A DNA stretch of 20,000 nt from an uncultured virus (IMG/VR IMGVR_UViG_3300009285_007005) (Duplodnaviria > Heunggongvirae > Uroviricota > Caudoviricetes), in the IMG/VR virus record IMGVR_UViG_3300009285_007005. One strand, given 5' to 3'. Of the stretch, positions 1,856 to 13,277 are shown piece by piece. The position numbers and the translations under genes were made by a program. Below the pieces are notes generated by a model. It had not been told where the DNA came from. It did not search any database and saw only the letters and a program-made list of their open reading frames with translations. Positions within the stretch are counted from its first letter, which is position 1; every line of letters starts with the position of its first letter.

Positions 1856-2883
1856 CCGAACAGGATTTGGAATACAAAGTTCACCCGTACACCGAAATTT
1901 TTCCTTTGATGACGGAAAAGGAACTTTTGGATTTGTCCATCGATATCAAGGATCACGGCTTGGAATTGCCGATCCTGAGACTTCCCGACGGCCGGATTAT
2001 CGACGGACGGAACCGCTTTCTTGCATGTAAACGTGCCGGCGTCACTCCCATTTTTAAGGATCTCCAGACCGGCGGGTCTGCAAAAGTTCTCCTGGCCAAG
2101 GTCGTCAGCTTGAATCTCCCCCGGCGGCATCTCACGGAATCGCAACGCGGCATGGTCGCGGCGAAGATTGCGAACATAAAGTTTGGCGACAATCAGTATC
2201 TCAGAAAGGGTACATCAACTGATGTACCCATAGTTTCCCAGACGAAGGCTGCTGAGATGCTTCAAGTGGGGAAAGCCACGGTTCAACGCGCTAAAACCGT
2301 TCTCACTTCCGGCACTCCCGAACTCCAAAATGCCGTCGAATCCGGCGCCATCTCAGTAAATGCCGCCTCCCGTGTCGCCGCCCTTCCTAAGAAGGATCAA
2401 CGCGAGATAGCCAGCTTCGGCGACGCCCGGAAGGCTGCGGGAGCACTGGAAAAGATTCGATCACAAGCCCCTTCCGCGGTGGTTCATCTACATGCCTGTA
2501 TGCTCTGCGGGGAATGCCGGCAAGTTCCTCTCGGAAAAAATGACGAGGACCGCAAGCCCCTCCTGCATTGTAGAAAAAAGCGATTCGAAGCCACCGAGCA
2601 GAGCAACCTTCCGGCGATCAACGTCTATCAAAACGGCACCTGCGATTGCCCGAAAGCCGATCTCGACGAGGACTATTTCCGGGAAGTCAAAACCGACTGC
2701 CAGATCAAGATGTCAACGCACCTGAGCGCGTCCATCATTTTCCCGGAAAAACTCCTTGTGAAAATCTACAAGCATCTCCCGATCTCGCCTTGTAAGGTCT
2801 ACTTCAAAGCCGAGCACCTATTGTGGCCTGAAAGGAAATCGAAGAGTGCGACGAAGCAAGGAGGCTGTGTTGTCCGGCGATGA
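1852..2883 (+). CDS. ParB/Srx N-terminal domain protein with HTH and C-terminal Cys-rich domain
   Basis: HPYTEIFPLM...L..DIK.HGL..PI...IIDGRNRFLAC (GxxRxxA box), NLPRRHLTESQR, HTH SQTKAAEMLQVGKATVQRAK, then CMLCGEC...CDC. Confidence 0.85.
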   Translation: MTEQDLEYKVHPYTEIFPLMTEKELLDLSIDIKDHGLELPILRLPDGRIIDGRNRFLACKRAGVTPIFKDLQTGGSAKVLLAKVVSLNLPRRHLTESQRGMVAAKIANIKFGDNQYLRKGTSTDVPIVSQTKAAEMLQVGKATVQRAKTVLTSGTPELQNAVESGAISVNAASRVAALPKKDQREIASFGDARKAAGALEKIRSQAPSAVVHLHACMLCGECRQVPLGKNDEDRKPLLHCRKKRFEATEQSNLPAINVYQNGTCDCPKADLDEDYFREVKTDCQIKMSTHLSASIIFPEKLLVKIYKHLPISPCKVYFKAEHLLWPERKSKSATKQGGCVVRR

Positions 2884-3562
2884 AGACCCCAAAGCCGTCG
2901 AAGCCCGGATGGATAAAAACGAAGAGCCGCCGCAGTGCAATTGGATCGATCAGACGAGCGGCCGGCGGTGCGTGGCCACGTCCCTGTTCGGTTATCTCAG
3001 GTGCGCGAAGCATCTTGTCGAGGAAAAGGCCGCTCCCGAACCGCCGCCGGAAATTACAACCGCCCTTGCCAAATTGCCGCCGGAAGGCACGAATCTGCCG
3101 GGACTCGCGATCCATTCGGCGCAACGGATGAGCCCGACGGAGCGGTACATCTACGATCTCACCCGCAAGGGCCTTGTGGAAGAGTACCCGGAATTGGATA
3201 AGGGCGCCGATGCGATGATGCTGCACCTGGTCTGCTTTCACTTCGCACGGTTCCAGAGCCTTCTTTTCTACGGCGGAAGGCCCCTGAGTCTGAAACGGAA
3301 GGGGAAGGAACAGCAGGTCGAAGAGCACGAGCATCGTGTCAGTGTAATTCTGAGTCAGTTGGGGATACGCCGCGATGTCCGGAAAAAAGTCGAGGCGCCG
3401 CCGAAGGGACGCGACCCGGCCAACCTTAACGTCCTCATCATGGAGGTCATGAAAGCGAAGGGCTCAGACGACGCTTTTTCTGGCAAGGTTCTTCCGGGCA
3501 GGGTTATCGACATGGAGGACGCCGAAATGCAAGAGGAAGACGAAAACGAGGGAGAGGAATGA
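2870..3562 (+). CDS. Possible terminase small subunit-like protein with N-terminal C-C-CxxH zinc finger
   Basis: AAGGAGG RBS at 2858-2864 favours a start at 2867 or 2870. C-x10-C-x10-CAKH finger, helical core ending ILSQLGIRRDVR (resembles P27-type TerS C-termini), acidic tail. No large subunit is adjacent, so the function is tentative. Confidence 0.45.
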   Translation: MSGDEDPKAVEARMDKNEEPPQCNWIDQTSGRRCVATSLFGYLRCAKHLVEEKAAPEPPPEITTALAKLPPEGTNLPGLAIHSAQRMSPTERYIYDLTRKGLVEEYPELDKGADAMMLHLVCFHFARFQSLLFYGGRPLSLKRKGKEQQVEEHEHRVSVILSQLGIRRDVRKKVEAPPKGRDPANLNVLIMEVMKAKGSDDAFSGKVLPGRVIDMEDAEMQEEDENEGEE

Positions 3563-3828
3563 GCGGAATCAGGTTTACGATTTCTCCGGGCACCTTGACG
3601 ATTCAGGTTGCTGAAAAATTACGTGAAGCCGTGGAATCCGGGGAATTCGCAGAAAAGATTGTCGAGGTGGTGCGCCGCGAAGTCCGGAAAGCCTTTCCGG
3701 GTTGGGAGTTCAAGGAGTGGTACGGCATTTTCAAAACGCCGGAGCGGGGCGGTTATTGGATGGTGGTTTCGGAATTCCCGGTCGGGCAAGCGGACCCGGA
3801 CGGGCATTTGAAGGAGGTGGAAAGATGA
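3559..3828 (+). CDS. Phage hypothetical protein
   Basis: GGAGAGG RBS and ATGA overlaps at both ends. Confidence 0.7.
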   Translation: MSGIRFTISPGTLTIQVAEKLREAVESGEFAEKIVEVVRREVRKAFPGWEFKEWYGIFKTPERGGYWMVVSEFPVGQADPDGHLKEVER

Positions 3829-4112: not shown

Positions 4113-4156
4113 TCCCCTTATAGTGCCATTCTATATAATGCTTCGCAATTATCCCC

Positions 4157-4185
4157 TTGACAAAGCAGACAAAAAGCCTTATATT
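4157..4185 (+). promoter_or_regulatory. Sigma70 promoter overlapping element A left TIR
   Basis: TTGACA (4157-4162), 17 bp spacer, TATATT (4180-4185); GAGGGG RBS before ATG 4211. Confidence 0.8.
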
Positions 4186-4210
4186 TTAGCTTAGAAAGAG
4201 GGGAAATGCA

Positions 4211-5116
4211 ATGAATCTGCTTGAAATAGGAAAAATGACCGAAAGCGAAGCCCGGAAACTTCTTGAGGGTATCCGATGGCCGAACAGTGTCCGTTGTGCT
4301 CATTGTGGTTCCGAGAAAGTGACCAAGCTTGAAGGCGACAAGCACCGCGACGGCGTTTACCAATGCAACGAAACAGCATGCCGCGAGCAGTTTACGGTGA
4401 CTGTCGGAACGATCCTGCACAAGTCGAAAATACCTCTCGTTAAATGGGTCATGGCTTTCCATCTTCTTTGCTCCAGTAAGAAAGGCATCAGCGCTCATCA
4501 GCTTTATCGACAGTTGGGGCTTGGGTCTTACAAAACGGCGTGGCATCTTTGCCACAGGATTCGTTGGGCTATGTGCAATGGGGAAGACAAGGTTTTGCTT
4601 GGATTGAATGGTGGAATCGTCGAAGCTGACGAAACCTACATCGGCGGAAAACCGCCAGAATATTTTTCCGAAACTGCTATCAGGTCCGCTAAAAATCTTG
4701 CCGATGCGGTGGGCACGACAGAGGATGACGACACAAGTTTAAAACTTTTGTTCAATCAATCGACAACCCAAATAACGCATCATATATCCGCGAATATAAT
4801 AGATATGTTCAAGGCGGCATATGAGGATTACGGCTCCATCGAAGGGCGCGTAAACCTAATTTCCGACAAGGGACAACTGAAATTCGATGTTCACGACGAC
4901 CTTTATGATAAAGATATTCATTGTATTGCAAAAGATGAGCATTTAGAAATATTTATGCAGGCATTCCGAAAACGAGTTGAAGTTTATGGAATGATTCGCT
5001 ATCGCCGCGACGGTGTTCCAAATAATATCGTTGTGGAAAGAGTTGAAATTTTCCCGGCCCCAGAGGATCTGCCAAGTTTTGATGATGTTAGGGGAATTTT
5101 AAGGGGATTGCTTTGA
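4211..5116 (+). pseudogene. Chimeric ORF: IS1595 transposase N-terminus (aa 1-148) fused in frame to the C-terminal part of a cargo protein
   Basis: Zn ribbon (CAHC...CNETAC), HTH (ISAHQLYRQLGLGSYKTAW) and VEADETYIGGK are present. The remaining DDE motifs are absent. After about 4654 the sequence resembles the 7734-8555 protein. Confidence 0.8.
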
Positions 5117-5289
5117 AAGATCGCATTTATTGGGATTCAGATTGTTTCTTGGGTTGGCTCCAAGGTGAGCCGGGAAAAGAGAAACTATGCCATGATACGA
5201 TAGAGAAAGCAAAAAAGAGAGAGGTACTAATTGTCACATCAGCCTTGACGCTGACTGAAGTTCTGGCGGTGAAAAAATTAAAAAAAATT
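5113..5289 (+). pseudogene. Truncated PIN/VapC-like nuclease (first 59 aa)
   Basis: RIYWDSDCFLGWL...VTSALTLTEV is a PIN N-terminal half. It is interrupted by the element B TIR at 5290; the ORF-track extension to 5451 is read-through into IS sequence. Confidence 0.8.
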
Positions 5290-5312
5290 GGCGATTATGC
5301 ACTTGACAAACC
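5290..5312 (+). repeat. Terminal inverted repeat of element B (cargo end)
   Basis: 22/23 inverted match to 9590-9612. Confidence 0.93.
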
Positions 5313-5355
5313 AAAGCCCGATTCCGGACTTTTCTGGCGCGATCCGCACCCGATC

Positions 5356-5520
5356 CTACCGGCCCGACTTCGCCGTCAACTTCCGACGAGCCGTTTTCCG
5401 GCGTGGCTTCGGTTTTGCGATCTTCACCTTGCGGATGGGCGGCACTCCTAGCGCCTGACTCATCATCGCGTCGAAGTCAGCCATGCTGATCCGCTTCTTG
5501 GGTGTCTCTTTCGGCGGCAT
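5356..5520 (-). CDS. Small basic protein, 54 aa (MPPKETPKKRISMADFDAMMSQALGVPP...), last ORF of element B
   Basis: Below the ORF-track cutoff. AGAGG RBS overlapping the MTase stop, ATG 5520, TAG 5358-5356; K/R-rich tail. Confidence 0.7.
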   Translation of the reverse strand: MPPKETPKKRISMADFDAMMSQALGVPPIRKVKIAKPKPRRKTARRKLTAKSGR

Positions 5521-5534
5521 TGCCAGTTTCCTCT

Positions 5535-7013
5535 CTACAGAAGATCGATTTGCTTGCCCGCATTCGCGGCGCGTTGAGCAGCCTTTAATACTTCAAGGCT
5601 CATCGGAATTTCTAAGCGCTTACCGTCCTCTACTATCTCGCGTATCGTAACGATTTCGATCTTGTCATAACTTCGGCCCATATCTTCATGTTTAAACTGC
5701 CCAGCAGATTTGGCTTCGGTATTCATCGGATTATTCTTCGGATTGCTGGGTTCTTCAAGTGTTATAAATACCGACAAGGCCGCGCCTACTCTTTCCATGT
5801 CGCCTCGAAGCGTTGCGATATCTCCGCGCTTTACCCCGCCGGATTTGACCTGGAAAATGATCTTTGCGTTGTCGCTTTTCCCAGTCTTAAAATATGCGAT
5901 ACCGTCAATCCCAGCATCGGCACCTTTCTTCTCGTTGATGACTGCTCGGTTGTTTGTATAAGTCAGAACGGCCCATTTTTCAAATTCCTTGCGCAGTCGA
6001 TCATCTTTCTTATGCGCCAGCGCAACGGCTGATTTCATGTCTTTGGGTATTCCGTCAATCGTGATCCCATCGATTATTTTTTTACCGTACGTTTTTTCAA
6101 GTCGCAGTAGAATGAGGGCGATGGACTGATAGGTTATATCCATTCCTATCCATTTCCGTTTAAGCCTTTCTGCGACGGCTATGGTGGTCCCACACCCGCA
6201 ATATGCGTCCAGAATCAATTCCCCTTCATTGCTAGATGCTTTGATGATGCGTTCCATAAGCGCCTCTGGCTTCTGCGTGGGATAACCAAGGCGCTCAAAA
6301 GAGGTCGGACTCAACAATGGTGTAATATCAGGCCACCAATCACTCATTACAGCACCTTCAGAGCGAAGTTCGTATTTTTCGTTCATTTCCTTCTTGCAAG
6401 TAGTCAATCCCCGCTCAAGGGTTCCGTCAGAATATGGTCGATATTGGGTGTTGAATTTGAAGTCCTTGCTTTTCGCGTAGAAAAAAATAATATCGTGCTT
6501 CTTCGCAAAATATTTCTTTGATACACCACCACTGGCATAACACCATACTATCTCATTTTTGAAAGTACCTCCCTGTGAACAAAATATACTATCTAAAACG
6601 ACTTTTAAGTAGTGACTTGCGGTTGGATCGCAATGTAGGTAAAAACTGCCAGTGACCCTAAGCACTCTTTGGATTTCAGTCACGCGGAGCGACATACTCA
6701 CGAGATAAGCCAGCAGGCTACCCTCGTGCAGTACCGAATGAAGACCTTTGATGAGATCAACCAGGGTAGGTTGAAAGCGTCCTTCGGTGTTGCACAAAAT
6801 CTCATCATAGCCAGCAACGGCGTGCTCATCCCAAACCCATGTGTCGATAAATGCCTGGGCTTGTGCGCGATCCTCGCCGCCAATGTTGTTGTAGATTTGA
6901 TTGTAGTTGCGCTTGGAATTAAAGGGAGGGTCTATGTAGCAGAGGTCAACCGTCTCATCCCGAATCTTGTTCCGAAGGATGTCTAAATTGTCGCCGTAGA
7001 AAAGCTTATTCAT
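5535..7013 (-). CDS. Beta-class N6/N4 DNA methyltransferase fused to C-terminal Mrr-like PD-(D/E)XK domain
   Basis: GDNL, YIDPPF (motif IV), YPTQKP, ILDAYCGCGTT (motif I); C-terminal FEKWA...DAGIDG...IIFQVKSG. Confidence 0.9.
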   Translation of the reverse strand: MNKLFYGDNLDILRNKIRDETVDLCYIDPPFNSKRNYNQIYNNIGGEDRAQAQAFIDTWVWDEHAVAGYDEILCNTEGRFQPTLVDLIKGLHSVLHEGSLLAYLVSMSLRVTEIQRVLRVTGSFYLHCDPTASHYLKVVLDSIFCSQGGTFKNEIVWCYASGGVSKKYFAKKHDIIFFYAKSKDFKFNTQYRPYSDGTLERGLTTCKKEMNEKYELRSEGAVMSDWWPDITPLLSPTSFERLGYPTQKPEALMERIIKASSNEGELILDAYCGCGTTIAVAERLKRKWIGMDITYQSIALILLRLEKTYGKKIIDGITIDGIPKDMKSAVALAHKKDDRLRKEFEKWAVLTYTNNRAVINEKKGADAGIDGIAYFKTGKSDNAKIIFQVKSGGVKRGDIATLRGDMERVGAALSVFITLEEPSNPKNNPMNTEAKSAGQFKHEDMGRSYDKIEIVTIREIVEDGKRLEIPMSLEVLKAAQRAANAGKQIDLL

Positions 7014-7741
7014 TTCTCAGGCTCCTGAATCGCTATTTTATCCGATACGAGTAGTTCAGGAGTTTCATTGATTTGCTCAGATTTTACCGGATCGGGGGTT
7101 GCCTCGCCTTCGGCGACCGATGAATTCTTGCCGTCGCCAAGAGTTTGTATGGAGGCTTCCTTTTTTTCCGTCGCCGGCGGCTCTGGTTGACCTGATTTGG
7201 TCGGATCTTGGCCATCAAACAAATCAGCAATGCGATATTTGTCCGGGATGTATGAGGTTTCACGAGGATTGATCACGAGAAGGTTGAATTTGCGAAGTTG
7301 TTCTTTCCTCTTTAAAATCCCCGGATCGGTAGTGGCGAATTCATTGCATTCTTTTCTAATGGCGGATGCGACATGGAGTCCGTCAGCCCCGCCCAAATTA
7401 ATGCCATGTTTCCATCGAAGATTGCGTGCTTCAATTGCCGCAAAATAATCAGCCTGAAGAAGAATGATAACCTCGCCGGAAGTGAGGACAGAATTTATAA
7501 CCCTTTGCGTCTCTTCGCTTGGCGGTGATCCCTCGTCATGGCAATGAAGGCACTCCGCAATTGTCAACGTGGACGTATACAGATCAATTTCGTGGTCTCT
7601 GGCGGCTTTCAACAGGTGCTGTATAGACCATAAATCCTTTTCCTTATCAGGATCAGGCGGCAGGGACTTTTTGTGCTCAATTTGCGTCATATAATCAATC
7701 AAGCAGCAGGTTTCAATATAAATCCGAGGATTTTTAGCCAT
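7010..7741 (-). CDS. PIN-domain (VapC-like) ribonuclease with C-terminal low-complexity tail
   Basis: RIYIETCCLID, TSTLTIAEC, GADGLHVASA, FATTD give the PIN acidic residue pattern; about 70-aa P/E/K-rich tail. Confidence 0.85.
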   Translation of the reverse strand: MAKNPRIYIETCCLIDYMTQIEHKKSLPPDPDKEKDLWSIQHLLKAARDHEIDLYTSTLTIAECLHCHDEGSPPSEETQRVINSVLTSGEVIILLQADYFAAIEARNLRWKHGINLGGADGLHVASAIRKECNEFATTDPGILKRKEQLRKFNLLVINPRETSYIPDKYRIADLFDGQDPTKSGQPEPPATEKKEASIQTLGDGKNSSVAEGEATPDPVKSEQINETPELLVSDKIAIQEPEK

Positions 7742-8555
7742 TCCCGCGACTCCGAATTTTATTAATAAATTGTTCCGTAGTCATGTCGCCGATAAGGTTC
7801 GGCTGGATACCGCGCAATTTTTCAATATCGCCCTCTTGGTATTTCTCGGCAACTTCGATTCGCTCCACCATAAGAATGTCGATCTTATTTTCGGCCTGAA
7901 TCAATTTTAACTTGCCGAACACATGTACGACGGCGTTCCTTTCTTGTAAGGCTTCAACAACAGCGCCATATTTATCTGCCGGAAAAACACATTTGATCCG
8001 ATCACCAGTGCTTAAATCTCGTAAGGTAAAATATGGCGGCGTAACTCCTTTTTTTAAGTTGTCAATCCTTCCCTGAATCGAACCATCGTATTCAATAATT
8101 TTTTCGATTTTCGCTTGCAATTCGGCGGCACTCTTTTTGGTAAAATCAATCCATTTGTCCGGCTCGGAAGGTCCGTTGCGATATAGTCCAAAAATTATTT
8201 TTTCGTCCGCGTCGATTGATTTAGACATTTTGACGTACTGTTTCATAGTTACCGTTCTAATTTGCGCCAAAGACGCCGAACCATTGCTGGTCAACGCGGA
8301 AATTTCTTCAAAACTCTGATTAAAAGAAGCAATAAGGTTTTCAGTCGTGGCGCGGCCCGCCAGTTCGGCATCACACTCAAACGAACCGTCTTTAATGCGT
8401 ATAGCAATCCAGTCGCCTATGCTAGATTCAATTCCGACATCTTCTCCTAGCATACGAAGAAATTTCTCGAATTCTTCGCTGACCCTGGCGAGTTTGACCA
8501 AAGGGACGCCCACTCGGCCCTTGTTGATTTCCAGGCGCACGCGGAGGGTAGCCAT
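7734..8555 (-). CDS. Uncharacterised PIN-associated protein, C-terminal beta-rich (possible OB-fold) domain
   Basis: GGAG RBS; overlaps the PIN start. C-terminal GSIQGRI...IKCVF...VHVFGKL...VERIEV. The fold is inferred from the strand pattern only. Confidence 0.75.
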   Translation of the reverse strand: MATLRVRLEINKGRVGVPLVKLARVSEEFEKFLRMLGEDVGIESSIGDWIAIRIKDGSFECDAELAGRATTENLIASFNQSFEEISALTSNGSASLAQIRTVTMKQYVKMSKSIDADEKIIFGLYRNGPSEPDKWIDFTKKSAAELQAKIEKIIEYDGSIQGRIDNLKKGVTPPYFTLRDLSTGDRIKCVFPADKYGAVVEALQERNAVVHVFGKLKLIQAENKIDILMVERIEVAEKYQEGDIEKLRGIQPNLIGDMTTEQFINKIRSRGNG

Positions 8556-8596
8556 GATCTTTTCTCCCAGAACGCCGCCTCCGCACTTTCTGGTTT

Positions 8597-9565
8597 CTAA
8601 TTCGCGGCGGCCGATGAGTCCCGGTATTGGAGCCGTTTTCCAGACATTCCGCGCAGGGCTACGTCAGTCCGTGCGCCGTCGCTGATTTTTCTATTATTGT
8701 ACTTATGGTCCAATTCCGCAAGGTATAGCGGAAGGTGCTTGCCGGAAACGTGGTGGTGCGTCCCGTCCAGGCTTCGTTTACTGTTCCCGAAGAAGCCCTC
8801 GACTGTGTTCGTCGTCGCCAGTCGCCCCGTATCTTCGTCGTGGCGGGCGTATTCCTCAGCCGAATGATTTACGGTGTCGTGCGAGGCAAAGCCTTGACCC
8901 GGCCAAATGTAAAGCGGCGACTCGTCCGTATTCAGATGGGCGGTCGGCATGACGTGCTGCTTGAGCAAGCGGTTCAGTTCCTCTCCGGTCACTTTTTGAA
9001 CCGTTTGAGACCGCACGCATCCTCCGCGTTCCACAAGAGAGACGACGGCGGTTTTGTTCCCGGTGTAGCGCCTTCCCTTGCCTCGCACCTTGCCGCCGAC
9101 ATACGTTTCGTCCGCTTCTACGAAGTTCTTTAGTTTACCACTCGGTGCGACATCCTTCAAGGCGTAGCGGATGCGGTGACACAAAAACCAAGCCGTCCGG
9201 TAGGAGCCAAGTTCGAGTTGCCGCTGGATCTGGAGCGCGGAAATTTGCGTCTTGCTCGCGCACATCAAGTAGAAGGCGGCAAGCCATTTATTCAAGGGGA
9301 TATGGGAATCCTCGCAGACCGTGCCGACCGTGACCGTGAAATGGTTGTCACATTCGGCGCATGTATAGAGGCCGGGGCGGATTTTCTTCGCGGGGTTGGC
9401 TTCCAATTTGTAAATCGGTTTTTCCCCCGAATTGCCGCAACGGGGACATACCGGGCCGTTCGGCCAGCGGATGTGTTCGAAGTATTCCCGCGCCGACTCT
9501 TCGGTGGAAAAGCGGGCCATGATCTGCATTAGCGTTAGGTCTTGGTTTTTGTCTTGTGTCTTCAT
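8597..9565 (-). CDS. tnp: IS1595-family (ISXO2-like) DDE transposase
   Basis: RWPNGPVCPRCG..CAEC Zn ribbon, HTH, VEADETYVGGK, LNTDES, VNHS, TNTVEGFF, YLAE. Confidence 0.95.
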   Translation of the reverse strand: MKTQDKNQDLTLMQIMARFSTEESAREYFEHIRWPNGPVCPRCGNSGEKPIYKLEANPAKKIRPGLYTCAECDNHFTVTVGTVCEDSHIPLNKWLAAFYLMCASKTQISALQIQRQLELGSYRTAWFLCHRIRYALKDVAPSGKLKNFVEADETYVGGKVRGKGRRYTGNKTAVVSLVERGGCVRSQTVQKVTGEELNRLLKQHVMPTAHLNTDESPLYIWPGQGFASHDTVNHSAEEYARHDEDTGRLATTNTVEGFFGNSKRSLDGTHHHVSGKHLPLYLAELDHKYNNRKISDGARTDVALRGMSGKRLQYRDSSAAAN

Positions 9566-9571
9566 GCTGCT

Positions 9572-9599
9572 AATATAGCACTTCTGCTAGGTTTGTCAA
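9572..9599 (-). promoter_or_regulatory. Transposase promoter overlapping TIR (extended -10, probably leaderless)
   Basis: On the minus strand: TTGACA, 16 bp, TG-c-TATATT, then 6 nt to the ATG; no Shine-Dalgarno. Confidence 0.7.
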
Positions 9600-9612
9600 G
9601 GGCATAATCGCC
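9590..9612 (-). repeat. Terminal inverted repeat of element B (transposase end)
   Basis: 22/23 inverted match to 5290-5312. Confidence 0.93.
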
Positions 9613-9614
9613 AA

Positions 9615-9866
9615 ATGAAAACGTGTACAGATTGTGCGTGGTTGATGGCATGGAAGCAGAAAATCGACGGGGAAAGTAAAAAGAAAAAAGAGACCCGCGA
9701 GTATGGTTTTTGCAGGAATACTGGGGTTAGATATCCTGCGAGCAAATTGTTTCCTCTCGGATATTTTCGGGATGCAAACGCTTGTCCGTCATGGGTCAAG
9801 AGGGCGAAAGTGAGTCAACCAGCCTCTTCGCCACCGCAAGCGCCACGTTCCCGGCGCACTCCCTGA
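9615..9866 (+). CDS. Small Cys-rich phage protein (CxxC...C...C)
   Basis: MKTCTDCAW...YGFC...ACPSW. The ATG lies 2 bp after the TIR. The 3' end overlaps the convergent helicase gene by 71 bp. Confidence 0.6.
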   Translation: MKTCTDCAWLMAWKQKIDGESKKKKETREYGFCRNTGVRYPASKLFPLGYFRDANACPSWVKRAKVSQPASSPPQAPRSRRTP

Positions 9867-12800
9867 GCACGCGCGCCGTGTCGGTGCCGATTTTCCCGTC
9901 AATCGCGGCGTCGATCGCGCGCTGCTTGGCCTCGGTGACGGCGTACATGACTTCTTGAATGGTTCCCCGAGAGAACAGGTAGTGGATATGAACTTCCTTG
10001 GTCTGGCCGGGGCGGTGTACGCGGTCCTCGGCTTGACGGTGCGGTTCGGGGGTGTAACGGATGTCTGTTATGATAACTCGGTTGGCCTTCGTGATCGTGA
10101 AGCCGCGGTTGAGGATTTCGAGCCCGGTCACAATGGCGGTCTTTTCGGGATCGGCCTCGAAAGCCTTGATGAGCGCGTGGCGTTTTTTGCTCTGGGCGTC
10201 GGCCAGAATCGAAGTAATGCCGTAGGTCTTCAGGTCGGCTGCGATGGCGTCCTGCATGTCTTGGAGGCCAGAAAAGATCAATACCTTGTCGTCGGCGGCC
10301 TTTGCCTCTGCCATGATTTCGCGGATTCGCGTCAAAACTGCGGTGTCGGTTCCTTCGGGAAGTGCGCCGGGGATATGGTCTCGGGCGGTCGGGACCGTGG
10401 CGGCGAAGCGCATCCGCCAAAGTTGCCTGGAAATCACGCCCATGTTGACCTCGCGGCTGTTCCGTCCGGCGTTGATGAACTCCCGGCGGATTTCTTCCAC
10501 GGCATTGGACGAAACGGAATCGTAGAGGTCGGCGTGGTCCTGGTGCATGATGAGGGTTTCGACGTGCCGGAATTTCTCAGGGAGCGCCTTGAGTTCCGGC
10601 ATATCGCTTTTGAGCCGTCTTACCGTCATGGGCGCGATGAGGCGGCGGAAGCGGGAAAGATTTGAGACTTCCGGGATGAGTTTCGCGCGGCCCTTGCTCA
10701 AGCTGTCGGCGAATTCCTTATCGACGCGCTCATAGGTGGCGAACTCATCGAGGAAACGCCGGGAGCCCGCACGCCAGGGATAGGGGAAAAGAGGCGTGTC
10801 GTGGCCGTAGAGCCATCCGACCGTCCAGTAAAGATCGGTGACGAAGCCTTTCAGGAGTGTTCCGGTAAGCACGAGTTTCCCGTCCGCTCGGATGGACCGC
10901 ACGGCTTGACCTCTGAGACTGCCCTTACTCTTGATCGTCTGGGCCTCGTCGCAGAGCACGCACCCGAAAAGTTTCCGGACATACCGGATTGCGGGGAAGC
11001 TGGTTTTCGCCGTTCGCTCCCGCCCCTTGCCGTAGGTGAAGGCGCGGTATCCGCACTTGCGGCAGAATCCGCTCCATCCCTCGCGGTTCTGGCATTTCGG
11101 GCAGACGGGATGCAGGGTTAAGAAATCCCGTCCGCATTCCCGGCAGGCGTGGGAGGTGTTGCCCTCGATGTGATGCGGCGGCTGGTCCTGCATTTCCCGG
11201 TGACAGGTCCAGGGATCATAGGCGCGGTCGCCGAGGGACAGGAACTCGTAGCTGGTGACGAAAAATTCCGTGTCATGGGATTTGTCCGGGGACTTCTTCT
11301 CGGCGGCGATCCGGGCGCGAAGGTCGCCTACGGCGGAATGGCTGCGGAGTTCCGAAATCTTGAAGCCGAAGTTTTTCAGTTCCGCAAGCCAGTTCGGCAC
11401 AAGGCCGGATTCGCATACCACGAGCACGCGGCGATATTGGCGGAGGGAAGCCCATGCGGCGCTGGCGATCGTCTTCCCGCCCCCCATTTCGTAACCCAGA
11501 TATCCGGTCGGCTTGCACGCGAGCCGCGCCACGTCTTCGGCTTGGTAGTCGAAGAGGAAAGGGGCGACGGCACTAAGGCGGTTCCGGTAGGCTTTTATTC
11601 TCTCCGGGAAAACTTCTTCCACGGATCGCGCCGCGGGAAGTCCGAAAGTTCGGATGAGCCTGCGCACGGCTTCATGGTCACGCTCATCGATGACGACGGG
11701 GCCGGTCTCGGCTTGAACGCGGATCAAAAAGTATCGGGCTTCGATGTGGGTTGATTCGGCATGGCGGTCCTTCTTCTCTCCGACCATTTCCGTCTTCGTA
11801 ACTTTGTCCTCGGTTTCCCAGCCGGGCCGGAAGTGGTAGGCGGTTCCTTTTTCCCAGAGCACGGCGCCGGATTCGTCCGTCATGGTCTGCTGGGCGACGT
11901 AGGGACGGTCCAGGAAGTAGGCGAGGCGGTCTTGCGGGGCGACGGGCATGATGGGCGCGGCGCGGTCCTGGAATTTCTTGCGGAGGGCTAGGAGTCGGGT
12001 CATGTCGCGTTCATTCGGCGGCGTGACGGCAAAGCCGATGTCCGCGAGGTAGGCGGCGGCGCGCTTCGGGCCGGAGTGCAGCAGGGCGATTTTCGAGGCA
12101 ACGGCGGAGATCGCGCCGCCCTGTATCCCGCGCACGGGGTCATATTCCTGATAGGTTTCGTCCAGGAAGTCGAGCAGGGCGGCGGCGGCCGGGGAAGCAA
12201 CGGGGCCGCGTGTGGTGAGTGAAACGCTGTAATCCACCTTGATCGCGTCGAGGCGCGAGAGGTCCGGGAGCCGGGGCGGTGTGTTTACCTCATCAAAGGG
12301 GAGCATGTTGTCGTCGGTCCAGATTTTTCCCCAGAGGCCCGCAAGGTCGGCCTTCCAGGATTTTTCGGAATAGTTGATTTCGCCTGTTATTGTCTCGGCG
12401 CGGTGGTAGCCGTGATTCTGGCTGACGTGGATCGCCTGGAGCCGGACGGGGACGGAGATCCCGTATTCGGGTTTGAAAAGGTTGGCCACATCGATGTCGA
12501 AAATAAGGCGTTCGTGGTCCATGCGCCGGATGCGCTCCAGGTGCCGGGGGCTGGTCGCATAGTGGACCGGGAGAATGGCCAGGATGAGGCCGGAGCGCCG
12601 GTATCCGGTATCCAGGGCGGAGAAAGCCGCGTCGATGGCGGCGAGTTCGGACGGAAGGGTCGTGTCGTCGTCCCGCACCGTGGAATAGTGAAAAAGGTTT
12701 TCCTTGCCTTCGATATTCCAGAAAAGCCCGAAAGGCGGGTTGGTGACAACGATGTTGGCCTTATCCTTCAGGTGCGGGATGTAGCCGAGCAGGTCGCCGC

Positions 12801-13170
12801 AACCGACTGAAGCCGCGCCGAGCAGGTGGCGGGCCTGGGTCGCGGCCTGCTGATCGAGTTCGACGCCGAGGATGTGGTGGCCGGCCTTCTTCCACGGATG
12901 CAGAAGCCGCCCGGTCCCGCAAGTCGGATCGAGGACCACGGCCTTCTTGCCGTTCAGCCAGGGTGCCGCGAGGTCGCAGAGCGTCCGGGCGAAGTCAACC
13001 GGCGTGAAATACTGCGCTTTCTTCGACGCGGACCAGCGGCGGAAGCCGAGGTCGTGATTCGCCTCGCGCCCGGAATTGGAAAGCACGGATTTCTCCGTTA
13101 CCAGTTCGAGCTTGCGTTCGGACGGTTTGGGCATGGTCGGAAGGTCCGTGAAAAGGGCTGCCTGCATCAT
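9796..13170 (-). CDS. DarB-like N6-adenine methyltransferase / SNF2 helicase fusion
   Basis: MTase: QYFTP, LDPTCGTG, GVELD, NPPF. SNF2: YQ, EMGGGKT, DEAQ, LTGT, KVLIFS, GFTIT, QAEDRVHRPGQ. ATG 13170 (GGAG RBS, ATGA overlap) is preferred over 13185. Confidence 0.88.
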   Translation of the reverse strand: MMQAALFTDLPTMPKPSERKLELVTEKSVLSNSGREANHDLGFRRWSASKKAQYFTPVDFARTLCDLAAPWLNGKKAVVLDPTCGTGRLLHPWKKAGHHILGVELDQQAATQARHLLGAASVGCGDLLGYIPHLKDKANIVVTNPPFGLFWNIEGKENLFHYSTVRDDDTTLPSELAAIDAAFSALDTGYRRSGLILAILPVHYATSPRHLERIRRMDHERLIFDIDVANLFKPEYGISVPVRLQAIHVSQNHGYHRAETITGEINYSEKSWKADLAGLWGKIWTDDNMLPFDEVNTPPRLPDLSRLDAIKVDYSVSLTTRGPVASPAAAALLDFLDETYQEYDPVRGIQGGAISAVASKIALLHSGPKRAAAYLADIGFAVTPPNERDMTRLLALRKKFQDRAAPIMPVAPQDRLAYFLDRPYVAQQTMTDESGAVLWEKGTAYHFRPGWETEDKVTKTEMVGEKKDRHAESTHIEARYFLIRVQAETGPVVIDERDHEAVRRLIRTFGLPAARSVEEVFPERIKAYRNRLSAVAPFLFDYQAEDVARLACKPTGYLGYEMGGGKTIASAAWASLRQYRRVLVVCESGLVPNWLAELKNFGFKISELRSHSAVGDLRARIAAEKKSPDKSHDTEFFVTSYEFLSLGDRAYDPWTCHREMQDQPPHHIEGNTSHACRECGRDFLTLHPVCPKCQNREGWSGFCRKCGYRAFTYGKGRERTAKTSFPAIRYVRKLFGCVLCDEAQTIKSKGSLRGQAVRSIRADGKLVLTGTLLKGFVTDLYWTVGWLYGHDTPLFPYPWRAGSRRFLDEFATYERVDKEFADSLSKGRAKLIPEVSNLSRFRRLIAPMTVRRLKSDMPELKALPEKFRHVETLIMHQDHADLYDSVSSNAVEEIRREFINAGRNSREVNMGVISRQLWRMRFAATVPTARDHIPGALPEGTDTAVLTRIREIMAEAKAADDKVLIFSGLQDMQDAIAADLKTYGITSILADAQSKKRHALIKAFEADPEKTAIVTGLEILNRGFTITKANRVIITDIRYTPEPHRQAEDRVHRPGQTKEVHIHYLFSRGTIQEVMYAVTEAKQRAIDAAIDGKIGTDTARVLRECAGNVALAVAKRLVDSLSPS

Positions 13171-13277
13171 GAATCGGTTCTCCATTCCCGATGAAAATTA
13201 TTCTCCGCCTTTGTGGTGGTCATCGTTATCTCCTCGCCCGAATTATCTTTTTTGCGGGGACCATCTTCTTCAAGCAT
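13167..13277 (-). CDS. Small coupling ORF, 36 aa (MLEEDGPRKKDNSGEEITMTTTKAENNFHREWRTDS)
   Basis: GGAGG RBS; overlaps the upstream stop, and its TGA overlaps the helicase ATG. Confidence 0.45.
   Translation of the reverse strand: MLEEDGPRKKDNSGEEITMTTTKAENNFHREWRTDS

Follow-up and report, generated by a model that had tools for sequence, protein, structure and literature searches.

An OB-fold protein and PIN nuclease gene pair carried by an IS1595-family transporter element, and its remains in a decayed relative, in an uncultured virus

Background

Toxin-antitoxin (TA) pairs, those with PIN toxins included, are described inside Tn3-family transposons, where they lie beside the transposition genes, and the same account gives antitoxin before toxin as the usual order of type II genes (PMC7157771). 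Among insertion sequences (IS), the transporter IS (tIS) of the IS1595 family is also an already known category (10.1101/2021.05.26.445724, PMC11891212). As to phage defence, DUF6575 is named among the domains of anti-phage systems that were selected experimentally in Escherichia coli (Vassallo et al. 2022, PMC9519451). The present study concerns a stretch of 20,000 nucleotides (nt) from an uncultured virus (IMG/VR record IMGVR_UViG_3300009285_007005), hereafter called the window, in which domain scans and a repeat search revealed two nested, related elements of the IS1595 family. One of them, namely element 2, carries behind its transposase a gene of an unnamed protein family, which we call X, followed by a gene for a predicted PIN-domain nuclease; the other, element 1, holds the decayed remains of a related pair.

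An insertion sequence is commonly regarded as nothing but a transposase gene, while here a minimal IS family repeatedly carries one nuclease-plus-partner cassette. The transporter IS as a carrier type and TA cargo in transposons are already known; what is new is the X family, its obligate pairing with PIN, the finding that IS1595 has captured the cassette repeatedly, and the nested arrangement in the window. The original prediction, which was made from the letters of the window, held that the same gene pair is carried by two different IS1595 elements and stands directly behind the transposase in each. Two elements are indeed present and both their X and their PIN parts are related, but the left copy turned out to be a deletion fusion followed by a PIN stump of 58 codons, so that a gene pair behind the transposase exists in element 2 and no separate upstream gene in the left element. 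The 25-nt inverted repeats of element 2 and a coupled methyltransferase gene at 5535-7013 had been overlooked.

Element 2 and its cargo

Element 2 spans about 5288-9614 on the minus strand (~4.3 kb), with the gene order transposase (Tnp2), X (X2), PIN (PIN2) and methyltransferase, and it is intact and looks functional. Its terminal inverted repeats, the distal one at 5288-5312 (25 nt, plus strand) and the transposase-proximal one at 9590-9614 (minus strand), are 96% complementary to each other and enclose all four genes. The core of the repeat occurs three times in the window and not once in 200 shuffles, the third copy being that of element 1 at 4142-4164. Embedded in the transposase-proximal repeat is a promoter-like site (TTGACA-16-TATATT, 9599-9572, 11 of 12 positions matching and TG preceding the second hexamer), which reads into the transposase gene and the cargo operon. 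A counterpart in the corresponding repeat of element 1 (TTGACA-17-TATATT, 4157-4185) also has 11 of 12 matches, so that near-consensus, inward-reading sites lie inside the transposase-proximal repeats of both elements.

Tnp2 (8597-9565, minus strand) is an intact DDE transposase of 322 amino acids (aa). It is assigned to the IS1595 family by its N-terminal Zn ribbon (PF12760, E 3.2e-13) and its ISXO2-like DDE domain (PF12762, positions 1-153 of 153, E 1.6e-30), and it also matches NF033547 (E 4.5e-56). After a gap of 41 nt comes X2 (7734-8555, minus strand, 273 aa), which overlaps the start of PIN2 by 8 nt (7734-7741). PIN2 (7010-7741, minus strand) is a predicted PIN-domain nuclease of 243 aa (PF01850, E 3.5e-6, 28.1 bits versus a cut-off of 23.6). 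Its stop is overlapped by 4 nt by the start of the third gene of the cargo operon, which encodes a 492-aa DNA methyltransferase of the N6/N4 class (5535-7013, minus strand; PF01555 E 2.1e-38, PADLOC MTase_II E 1.8e-55). The C-terminus of the methyltransferase resembles an Mrr-like PD-(D/E)xK domain, with 24.8 bits for PF04471 Mrr_cat (cut-off 21) and 25.2 bits for PF22722, which is below the cut-off of 27 for that family. Read by eye, the domain shows a GIDG...QVK arrangement as in Mrr-type nucleases. Judging by these motifs, the protein may be a fused methyltransferase-nuclease rather than an orphan methyltransferase.

The element ends read GGCGATTAT in the window, CGGAATTAT in the related locus L001 and CGACATTAT in the related locus L003, and this end sequence, GGnnATTAT, may be the ggnnatTAT signature of the ISNwi1 subgroup of IS1595, which is also marked by a size range for its passenger-carrying forms. 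Element 2 lacks an 8-bp target duplication, its flanks being AAAAAATT and AAATGAAA; with TAATGCTT as the left flank of element 1, the two elements taken together are also without one, as would fit a rearrangement at a later time.

Linkage of X and PIN across loci

The neighbourhoods of X genes were surveyed by local tblastn, open reading frame (ORF) reading and Pfam. The X2-type sample comprises 27 loci, of which 5 come from species genomes (all metagenome-assembled genomes, MAGs, of Acidobacteriota), 20 from metagenomes and 2 from a sample of 401 Acidobacteriota genomes, where X was matched in 3 genomes, one of them already known; the sample of the second subfamily, called X1-type, comprises 3 loci. 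One more match, L006 (Pontibacillus), lies within a CCA-adding enzyme gene and was dropped as false. About five of the loci are duplicates (L012 and L021 equal L003, L019 equals L002, L017 nearly equals L016 and L020 nearly equals L018), therefore the independent sample is nearer 20.

In every one of the 25 loci with downstream DNA, a PIN gene follows its partner X, either overlapping the X stop (as in the window, by 8 nt) or starting at most 75 nt after it. This linkage holds over X identities of 26-38% to X2, and the remaining 2 of the 27 contigs end inside X. The claim that X is tied to PIN genes is thus borne out well beyond the window.

The association with the transposase is looser. An IS1595 transposase lies directly upstream of X on the same strand in 17 of the 27 loci. 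Among the 10 others, the DNA upstream is shorter than 800 bp in 6 and 1012 bp long in 1, and three (L004, L034 and L035) have at least 4 kb without a transposase. L004 holds a truncated transposase downstream on the other strand, and in L034 and L035 the pair is free of any transposase, the neighbours being a Schlafen-AlbA_2/HATPase_c_4 gene and a resolvase in L034 and unannotated in L035. At the same time, mobility of the unit is directly visible in relatives: inverted repeats bound transposase-X-PIN in L001, L002 and L003, and exact 8-bp direct repeats surround it, namely GGTATTTC (L001), CAAACTTG (L002) and AGCTGACT (L003), therefore the whole three-gene unit of ~2.8 kb transposes. The proposal that IS1595 elements spread the pair is supported by the 17 loci and the three duplications, and the cassette also occurs outside an IS in L034 and L035.

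How the three genes are related to each other was examined in the 10 loci with all three. The pairwise identities of X and PIN are correlated with r = 0.98, while those of X and the transposase give r = 0.49. For instance, L001 and L010 share 82% identity in X and 82% in PIN but 39% in the transposase, whereas L001 and L007 share 59% in the transposase but 37% in X and 41% in PIN. The nucleotide composition agrees: Tnp2 has 56.1% GC (68% at third codon positions, GC3), versus 44.5% for X2, 46.6% for PIN2 and 46.0% for the methyltransferase (GC3 46-50%), and the transposase part of element 1 has 50% GC versus 40-41% for X1 and PIN1. X and PIN are therefore a co-inherited cassette that was combined with IS1595 backbones more than once, and this re-pairing with different transposase lineages points to selection for the combination.

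The methyltransferase behaves otherwise. By tblastn it was found in only one of the 25 X loci from species genomes and metagenomes, namely in L022, where a methyltransferase 67.6% identical to that of the window directly follows a very different PIN of its own with the same 4-nt overlap.

A scan of viral contigs with the X2-type alignment gave no locus, and with the X1-subfamily alignment it gave two, L036 and L037, in which no more than 57 or 63 codons of a PIN gene remain behind an X1-type gene. In L036 (2640-3602) an IS1595-type repeat, CGGGATTATATACTTGACAAAC, stands directly before the intact X1-like gene with no transposase between, the PIN stump after the gene has 57 codons, and a DnaB-like helicase is encoded upstream; the locus may be a transposase-less remnant or a partner gene kept by the phage.

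Two side observations concern what else travels with or near such elements. The X-PIN pair of L005 is followed after 245 nt by a gene for a HipA_C-domain kinase (2380-3642), an arrangement suggestive of a small toxin-type gene cluster. In genome G002 (contig C65, locus L038, 2109-5005) an IS1595 transposase is followed, with stop/start overlap, by genes for a C5 cytosine (m5C) methyltransferase, an HNH nuclease and a Vsr mismatch endonuclease, and this transposase is 36-37% identical to the X-linked transposase of the same genome. From its gene content L038 looks like a whole restriction-modification unit as IS1595 cargo; therefore IS1595 elements in these hosts would carry other selfish or defence-type cargo too.

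Element 1, a decayed older copy

Element 1 (4142-5287, genes on the plus strand) is an older relative in a decayed state. Its transposase-proximal inverted repeat at 4142-4164 (plus strand) is 87% complementary to 9592-9614, and the IS end, if placed as in relatives, would lie at about 4144. The ORF at 4211-5116 encodes a chimera of 301 aa, in which transposase residues 1-148 are joined in frame to the last 153 residues of an X protein, X1. The transposase part, Tnp1 (4211-4654, plus strand, the N-terminal 148 codons only), consists of the Zn ribbon and the DNA-binding part and ends just past the motif ADETYIGGK. It matches PF12760 (E 2.3e-11) and only model positions 1-75 of 215 in NF033547, and it is 52% identical to Tnp2 residues 21-159 over 144 residues (E 3e-43). 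The X1 part (4655-5116, plus strand) belongs to the second X subfamily and lacks its first 99 residues. Behind it follows PIN1 (5113-5287, plus strand), of which the first 58 codons are left and which overlaps the X1 stop by 4 nt (5113-5116). At 5288 the repeat of element 2 interrupts PIN1, whose ORF then continues by chance to 5451.

The similarity between the copies is faint in pairwise comparison and significant by profile. X1 and X2 share 26% identity over 78 residues (E 0.009), and PIN1 and PIN2 share 27% over 60 residues (BLASTP, E 0.001). A profile of 107 X sequences aligns its positions 99-240 to residues 149-282 of the 301-aa ORF with an hhalign probability of 89.5 (E 1.9e-6, 131 columns), while a profile of 8 sequences gave only 8.9 (E 0.0037); the PIN profile matches PIN1 residues 2-55 with a probability of 81 (E 1.2e-5). 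Further evidence comes from P0174, a full-length protein of 252 aa, whose residues 100-252 equal ORF residues 149-301 at 71% identity without gaps and which itself matches the X profile (probability 96, E 2.9e-9, 215 columns). The alignments that the original prediction had drawn for the C-terminus of X and for PIN are thus real, and so are both gene overlaps. Its view of a diverged, conserved module instead of a recent duplication is also upheld, for the two copies belong to different X subfamilies. In fact, the transposase N-termini of the two elements are 52% identical and the repeats 87% alike, yet their X proteins are from different subfamilies.

A database search with ORF residues 149-301 returned 16 proteins, 15 of which are free-standing with 225-253 aa, and the transposase Zn ribbon occurs in only one of the 16, namely the window's own. 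Since the X1 part is fused to a transposase here and free-standing in its relatives, a deletion therefore joined Tnp1, just past the first catalytic motif, to X1. The rest of PIN1 was not found to the right of element 2 (9615 onward), where an unrelated small Cys-rich ORF lies; together with the lack of target duplications noted above, which suggests it, we infer that an IS-mediated adjacent deletion joined element 2 to the PIN1 stump. The 301-aa fusion retains the Zn-ribbon and DNA-binding N-terminus of Tnp1 behind a strong promoter-like site. It is a speculation that truncated Tnp1 might bind the repeats of both elements, which are 87% alike, and thereby inhibit transposition.

The X protein family

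X2 has an N-terminal alpha/beta domain (residues ~1-150), an oligonucleotide/oligosaccharide-binding (OB) fold (154-239) and a conserved C-terminal helical tail (243-271), and the C-terminal 30 residues, which form two helices, are the most conserved motif of the family. A word-indexed search with X2 found only 8 relatives, and an exhaustive profile search found 593 representative clusters at E<=1e-3, 398 at <=1e-10 and 198 at <=1e-30; the best 150 of the 593 hits are 121-295 aa long. All of the 10 representatives that we looked up are metagenomic, 4 bearing the name "hypothetical protein" and 6 no name. Among the 30 nearest ESM Atlas clusters there is no common Pfam family, and the commonest phyla are Acidobacteriota, Actinomycetota and Pseudomonadota.

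X2 matches no Pfam, PADLOC (E<=0.01) or PHROGs family, and against NCBIfam it has only a weak match to the N-terminal OB domain of XseA (E 0.0032). When 107 X relatives were scanned against Pfam at E<=0.1, PF01336 tRNA_anti-codon appeared in 4 of the 107, and apart from it no Pfam family appeared in more than one among the matches listed, which are the best 25 of 26 matching families. Against PDB sequences the X profile reached only E 0.18.

The structure is more informative than the sequence. The AlphaFold model of X2 with the 107-sequence alignment has a predicted local distance difference test (pLDDT) of 92.7 and a predicted template modelling score (pTM) of 0.79, as compared with 69.9 with the 8-sequence alignment. 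By VIA-align the OB fold is matched to single-stranded DNA-binding proteins (SSBs) at Z 9.7, namely 5gqo_B with a root-mean-square deviation (rmsd) of 4.3 and 4dam_A with 3.4, over 84 residues each; further matches are to PriB, RPA, MCM and the OB domains of Asp/Asn-tRNA synthetases. The best 50 rows all lie within X2 residues 151-256, most of them within 154-240. A Foldseek search of the PDB gave no match below E 0.001; the best one is exonuclease VII XseA (E 1.0e-3), followed by LysRS/AsnRS, Stn1 and RPA (~1e-3). In the model, residues 154-239 thus form an OB fold of the SSB/anticodon-binding type, as had been guessed, and this is an assignment of the fold only.

Foldseek on BFVD, a database of predicted viral structures, gave three matches over the whole length of X, the next match being at only 6e-4. 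These are a DUF6575 protein (E 8.4e-10, 264 columns, TM 0.41), a 270-aa myovirus protein (3.0e-9) and a protein of Leptospira phage LE1 (1.0e-8), and a structure search of the ESM Atlas likewise pointed toward DUF6575. As the family of X, however, DUF6575 (PF20215) was rejected at the sequence level. The hhalign probabilities against two members were 0.3 and 0.8, and DUF6575 is not among the families listed (25 of 26) for the 107 X members at E<=0.1. Given no profile similarity, DUF6575 is therefore kept only as a structural lead.

The PIN family

The PIN domain of PIN2 covers about residues 1-170, and its tail is of low complexity and rich in acidic residues and proline; the tails beyond residue 170 are also variable and of low complexity in relatives. 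In alignments of 16-17 sequences the acidic residues E63 and D120 are invariant, position 10 is D in most relatives and E in the window and L023, and position 138 is D in 14 sequences and N in 2. A Cys-Cys at 12-13, after the first acidic residue, is nearly invariant, which is unusual. With PF01850 above its cut-off and these acidic residues conserved, PIN2 resembles the toxin of VapBC pairs in this respect; no NCBIfam VapC model matches it. Against PDB sequences the best match of the PIN profile is only at E 0.45.

Interpretation of the X-PIN cassette

Building on the anatomy, homology, X-PIN linkage, mobility of the unit in relatives, OB fold and PIN acidic residues established above, we lean toward the view that the window contains an IS1595 transporter IS with X-PIN as a TA-like addiction or defence cassette. 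We prefer it because the genes are translationally coupled in antitoxin-then-toxin order, X and PIN are strictly inherited together, the cassette does not depend on any one transposase, and Tn3-family transposons provide a precedent. The promoter-like site in the transposase-proximal repeat of element 2 would drive the transposase gene and then the coupled X2-PIN2-methyltransferase operon. X would be made first from the shared transcript and would be the cognate, presumably binding, partner of PIN, which it may restrain, direct through its OB fold, or both. PIN would be a Mg-dependent nuclease effector, most likely a toxic RNase as in VapC. Once the element is lost, or a phage shuts off host gene expression, PIN would be set free and the cell arrested, which would stabilise the IS and its carrier replicon and could also abort infection. 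In element 1, the transposase N-terminus was fused by an internal deletion with the final 153 residues of X1; PIN1 was cut at codon 58 by one end of element 2, and an adjacent deletion would have removed the rest.

Several points speak against the TA-like view. X is not a small DNA-binding antitoxin of the VapB type, being 2.5-4 times longer than known VapB, and an OB fold such as that modelled in X is equally suited to a subunit that recruits substrate and to an inhibitor. The first acidic position of PIN2 is Glu instead of Asp. PADLOC-DB 2.0 at E<=0.01 gave 0 families for X2, PIN2, PIN1 and the 301-aa ORF, with matches among the cargo only for the methyltransferase (generic MTase models); with Pfam, NCBIfam and PHROGs assigning no family to X either, this agrees with the earlier statement that the pair is no named system. 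A tblastn search of X2 against 72,556 plasmids and 50,697 phage records found no relative, and P0182 had no match in the plasmids. The neighbourhood sample represents few clades of the 593-cluster family, mostly Acidobacteriota and soil or peat metagenomes. Moreover, in L009 X is frameshifted near the C-terminus (~800-1000) while PIN is intact, which is awkward if the tail of X neutralises PIN. L009 is not decisive, because the PIN frameshifts in the metagenome contigs L014 (~2010-2080) and L024 (1700-1969) suggest error-prone contigs; all three frameshifts could be assembly errors or real pseudogenes. Asymmetric decay, with X kept and PIN lost, was considered as a TA signature and left unused, for L036 fits it, L009 is the opposite, and the cases are too few.

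A bolder version, which we hold to be tentative and on the whole doubtful, is that X-PIN is an undescribed and widespread two-component immunity or addiction system, where the OB-fold protein X licenses PIN and IS1595 is a self-stabilising defence vehicle. X, structurally akin to DUF6575, would then act as a sensor, either of single-stranded nucleic acid of foreign origin or of an end to its own synthesis, and IS1595 elements would have captured the cassette repeatedly, sometimes with a methyltransferase-nuclease, and moved defence genes between genomes and phages. The X1 copies that lack transposase and PIN (L036, L037 and the window) could in that case be antidotes retained by phages.

A rather unlikely alternative, which dispenses with addiction logic, takes X-PIN for a two-subunit nuclease that serves defence or RNA processing. 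X would activate or target PIN instead of neutralising it, and the OB fold would recruit a specific RNA, e.g. tRNA, or foreign single-stranded DNA (ssDNA) and present it to PIN. The structural matches of X residues 154-239 to OB folds that bind ssDNA or the tRNA anticodon (VIA-align Z 9.7; Foldseek) argue for it, the weak sequence matches agree (XseA at E 0.0032, PF01336 in 4 of 107), and X is far larger than any VapB. Among its three full-length structural matches in phage proteomes, one is DUF6575 (E 8.4e-10), a domain named in association with defence (PMC9519451), but that link is structural only, with hhalign probabilities below 1. Against such a nuclease, a constitutively active pair would be costly on a multicopy mobile element, and the gene order and overlap fit antitoxin-then-toxin. 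Furthermore, no fused X-PIN protein is present in the best 150 of the 593 hits, and no longer, fused form of X among 8000 candidates, although this is weak evidence.

It is improbable that X and PIN are accessory transposition proteins, with PIN as a flap or strand nuclease that processes the non-transferred strand together with an ssDNA-binding partner, for which the complementation of TnsB by TnsA in Tn7 provides an analogy. The pair does recur beside IS1595 transposases, in 17 of 27 loci; it stands immediately behind the transposase, where the promoter-like site of the inverted repeat would control it as well, and its association was re-formed with two different transposase lineages, as selection for the combination would produce. 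Yet X-PIN stands without a transposase within at least 4 kb in L004, L034 and L035, genome G002 has 4 IS1595 transposase matches against 1 X match, that is, other transposases without the pair, and most IS1595 members encode the transposase only. Swaps between transposases that are 35-42% identical are also hard to reconcile with a tightly co-adapted machine.

Finally, we regard it as very unlikely that X, PIN and the methyltransferase form one restriction-modification-like unit, in which PIN and the Mrr-like domain attack unmarked nucleic acid bound by X while the methyltransferase marks self DNA: although the three genes are translationally coupled in the window, the PIN-methyltransferase junction recurs in L022 (67.6% identical methyltransferase) and the Mrr_cat-like domain is above its Pfam cut-off, PIN domains of this type are usually RNases, and the elements of L001, L002 and L003 enclose transposase-X-PIN only, with the methyltransferase in L022 alone among the 25 loci surveyed, therefore it is an optional extra.

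To return to the TA-like view, the partner of the PIN domain is here an OB-fold protein where a classical antitoxin would be expected, and the pair is small (273 and 243 aa). Should it be toxic and rescuable, it would add an antitoxin architecture of a new type; should it protect against phage, it would be a new defence system with an IS as the vehicle.

Other features of the window

The segment between the methyltransferase stop and the distal repeat of element 2 (5313-5534, 222 bp) has 59.9% GC versus 44-47% in the cargo, and either a remnant of the backbone or a small gene may lie here. A small, very basic ORF of 54 aa and uncertain status (5356-5520, minus strand) was found there by the ORF scan, starting 14 nt after the methyltransferase stop.

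Genes around the element pair encode a ParB-like protein, a methyltransferase-SNF2 helicase of 1129 aa and many small unknown proteins, and from this gene content the flanks look like a phage- or plasmid-like element. The protein with the ParB-like nuclease/partition domain (1852-2883) has a Cys-rich C-terminal half and matches phrog_21315 (E 1.2e-22) and phrog_4715; viral contigs were searched for its relatives in order to locate an empty site, and no close relative was found in them. In the 1129-aa protein (9796-13185, minus strand), an N6 methyltransferase domain at the N-terminus is joined to an SNF2 helicase, and the helicase part has a Cys-rich insert; the protein shows PADLOC similarity to the helicase regions of ZorD and DpdE (E 2.2e-33) and also matches phrog_62. 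Methyltransferase plus SNF2 helicase is an architecture often met on mobile elements. The window gave no match in Rfam and tRNA scans.

Comparison with known systems

In the literature searched, a scope that ISfinder lies outside, no description of an X-PIN cassette on IS1595 was found, and the nearest described systems each share a part of it. The X model resembles a phage DUF6575 protein over its whole length, but the Pfam domain (PF20215) is the N-terminal part of ~410-aa proteins and has no sequence or profile similarity to X. With the transporter IS of the IS1595 family the elements share the transposase, short terminal repeats, internal passenger genes and, in relatives, 8-bp target duplications; the difference is in the passengers, which in the consulted portions of these sources are transcription regulators (ISNha5), with no PIN pair named there (10.1101/2021.05.26.445724, PMC11891212).

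As in VapBC, there is a PF01850 PIN with conserved acidic residues, the partner gene is upstream and overlapping, and the pair is on mobile DNA. X2, however, has 273 aa versus the ~70-100 aa quoted for VapB in the original prediction, X contains an OB fold, and the PIN family has an unusual conserved Cys-Cys. No ribbon-helix-helix (RHH), AbrB, Phd/YefM or helix-turn-helix (HTH) Pfam family was found in X2, nor among the 25 families listed of 26 for the 107 members.

The closest parallel is the TA cargo of Tn3-family transposons. As far as that account describes them, both set a two-gene module next to a transposition gene inside the element, the toxins there include PIN and PIN_3 with the antitoxin-like gene mostly first, and modules of either kind were gained by, or traded between, transposon lineages on several occasions (PMC7157771). 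In the present case, on the other hand, the carrier is an IS1595 transporter IS with a DDE transposase only and neither resolvase nor res site, and the partner is a 250-275-aa OB-fold protein in place of an RHH, Phd/YefM, AbrB or HTH antitoxin.

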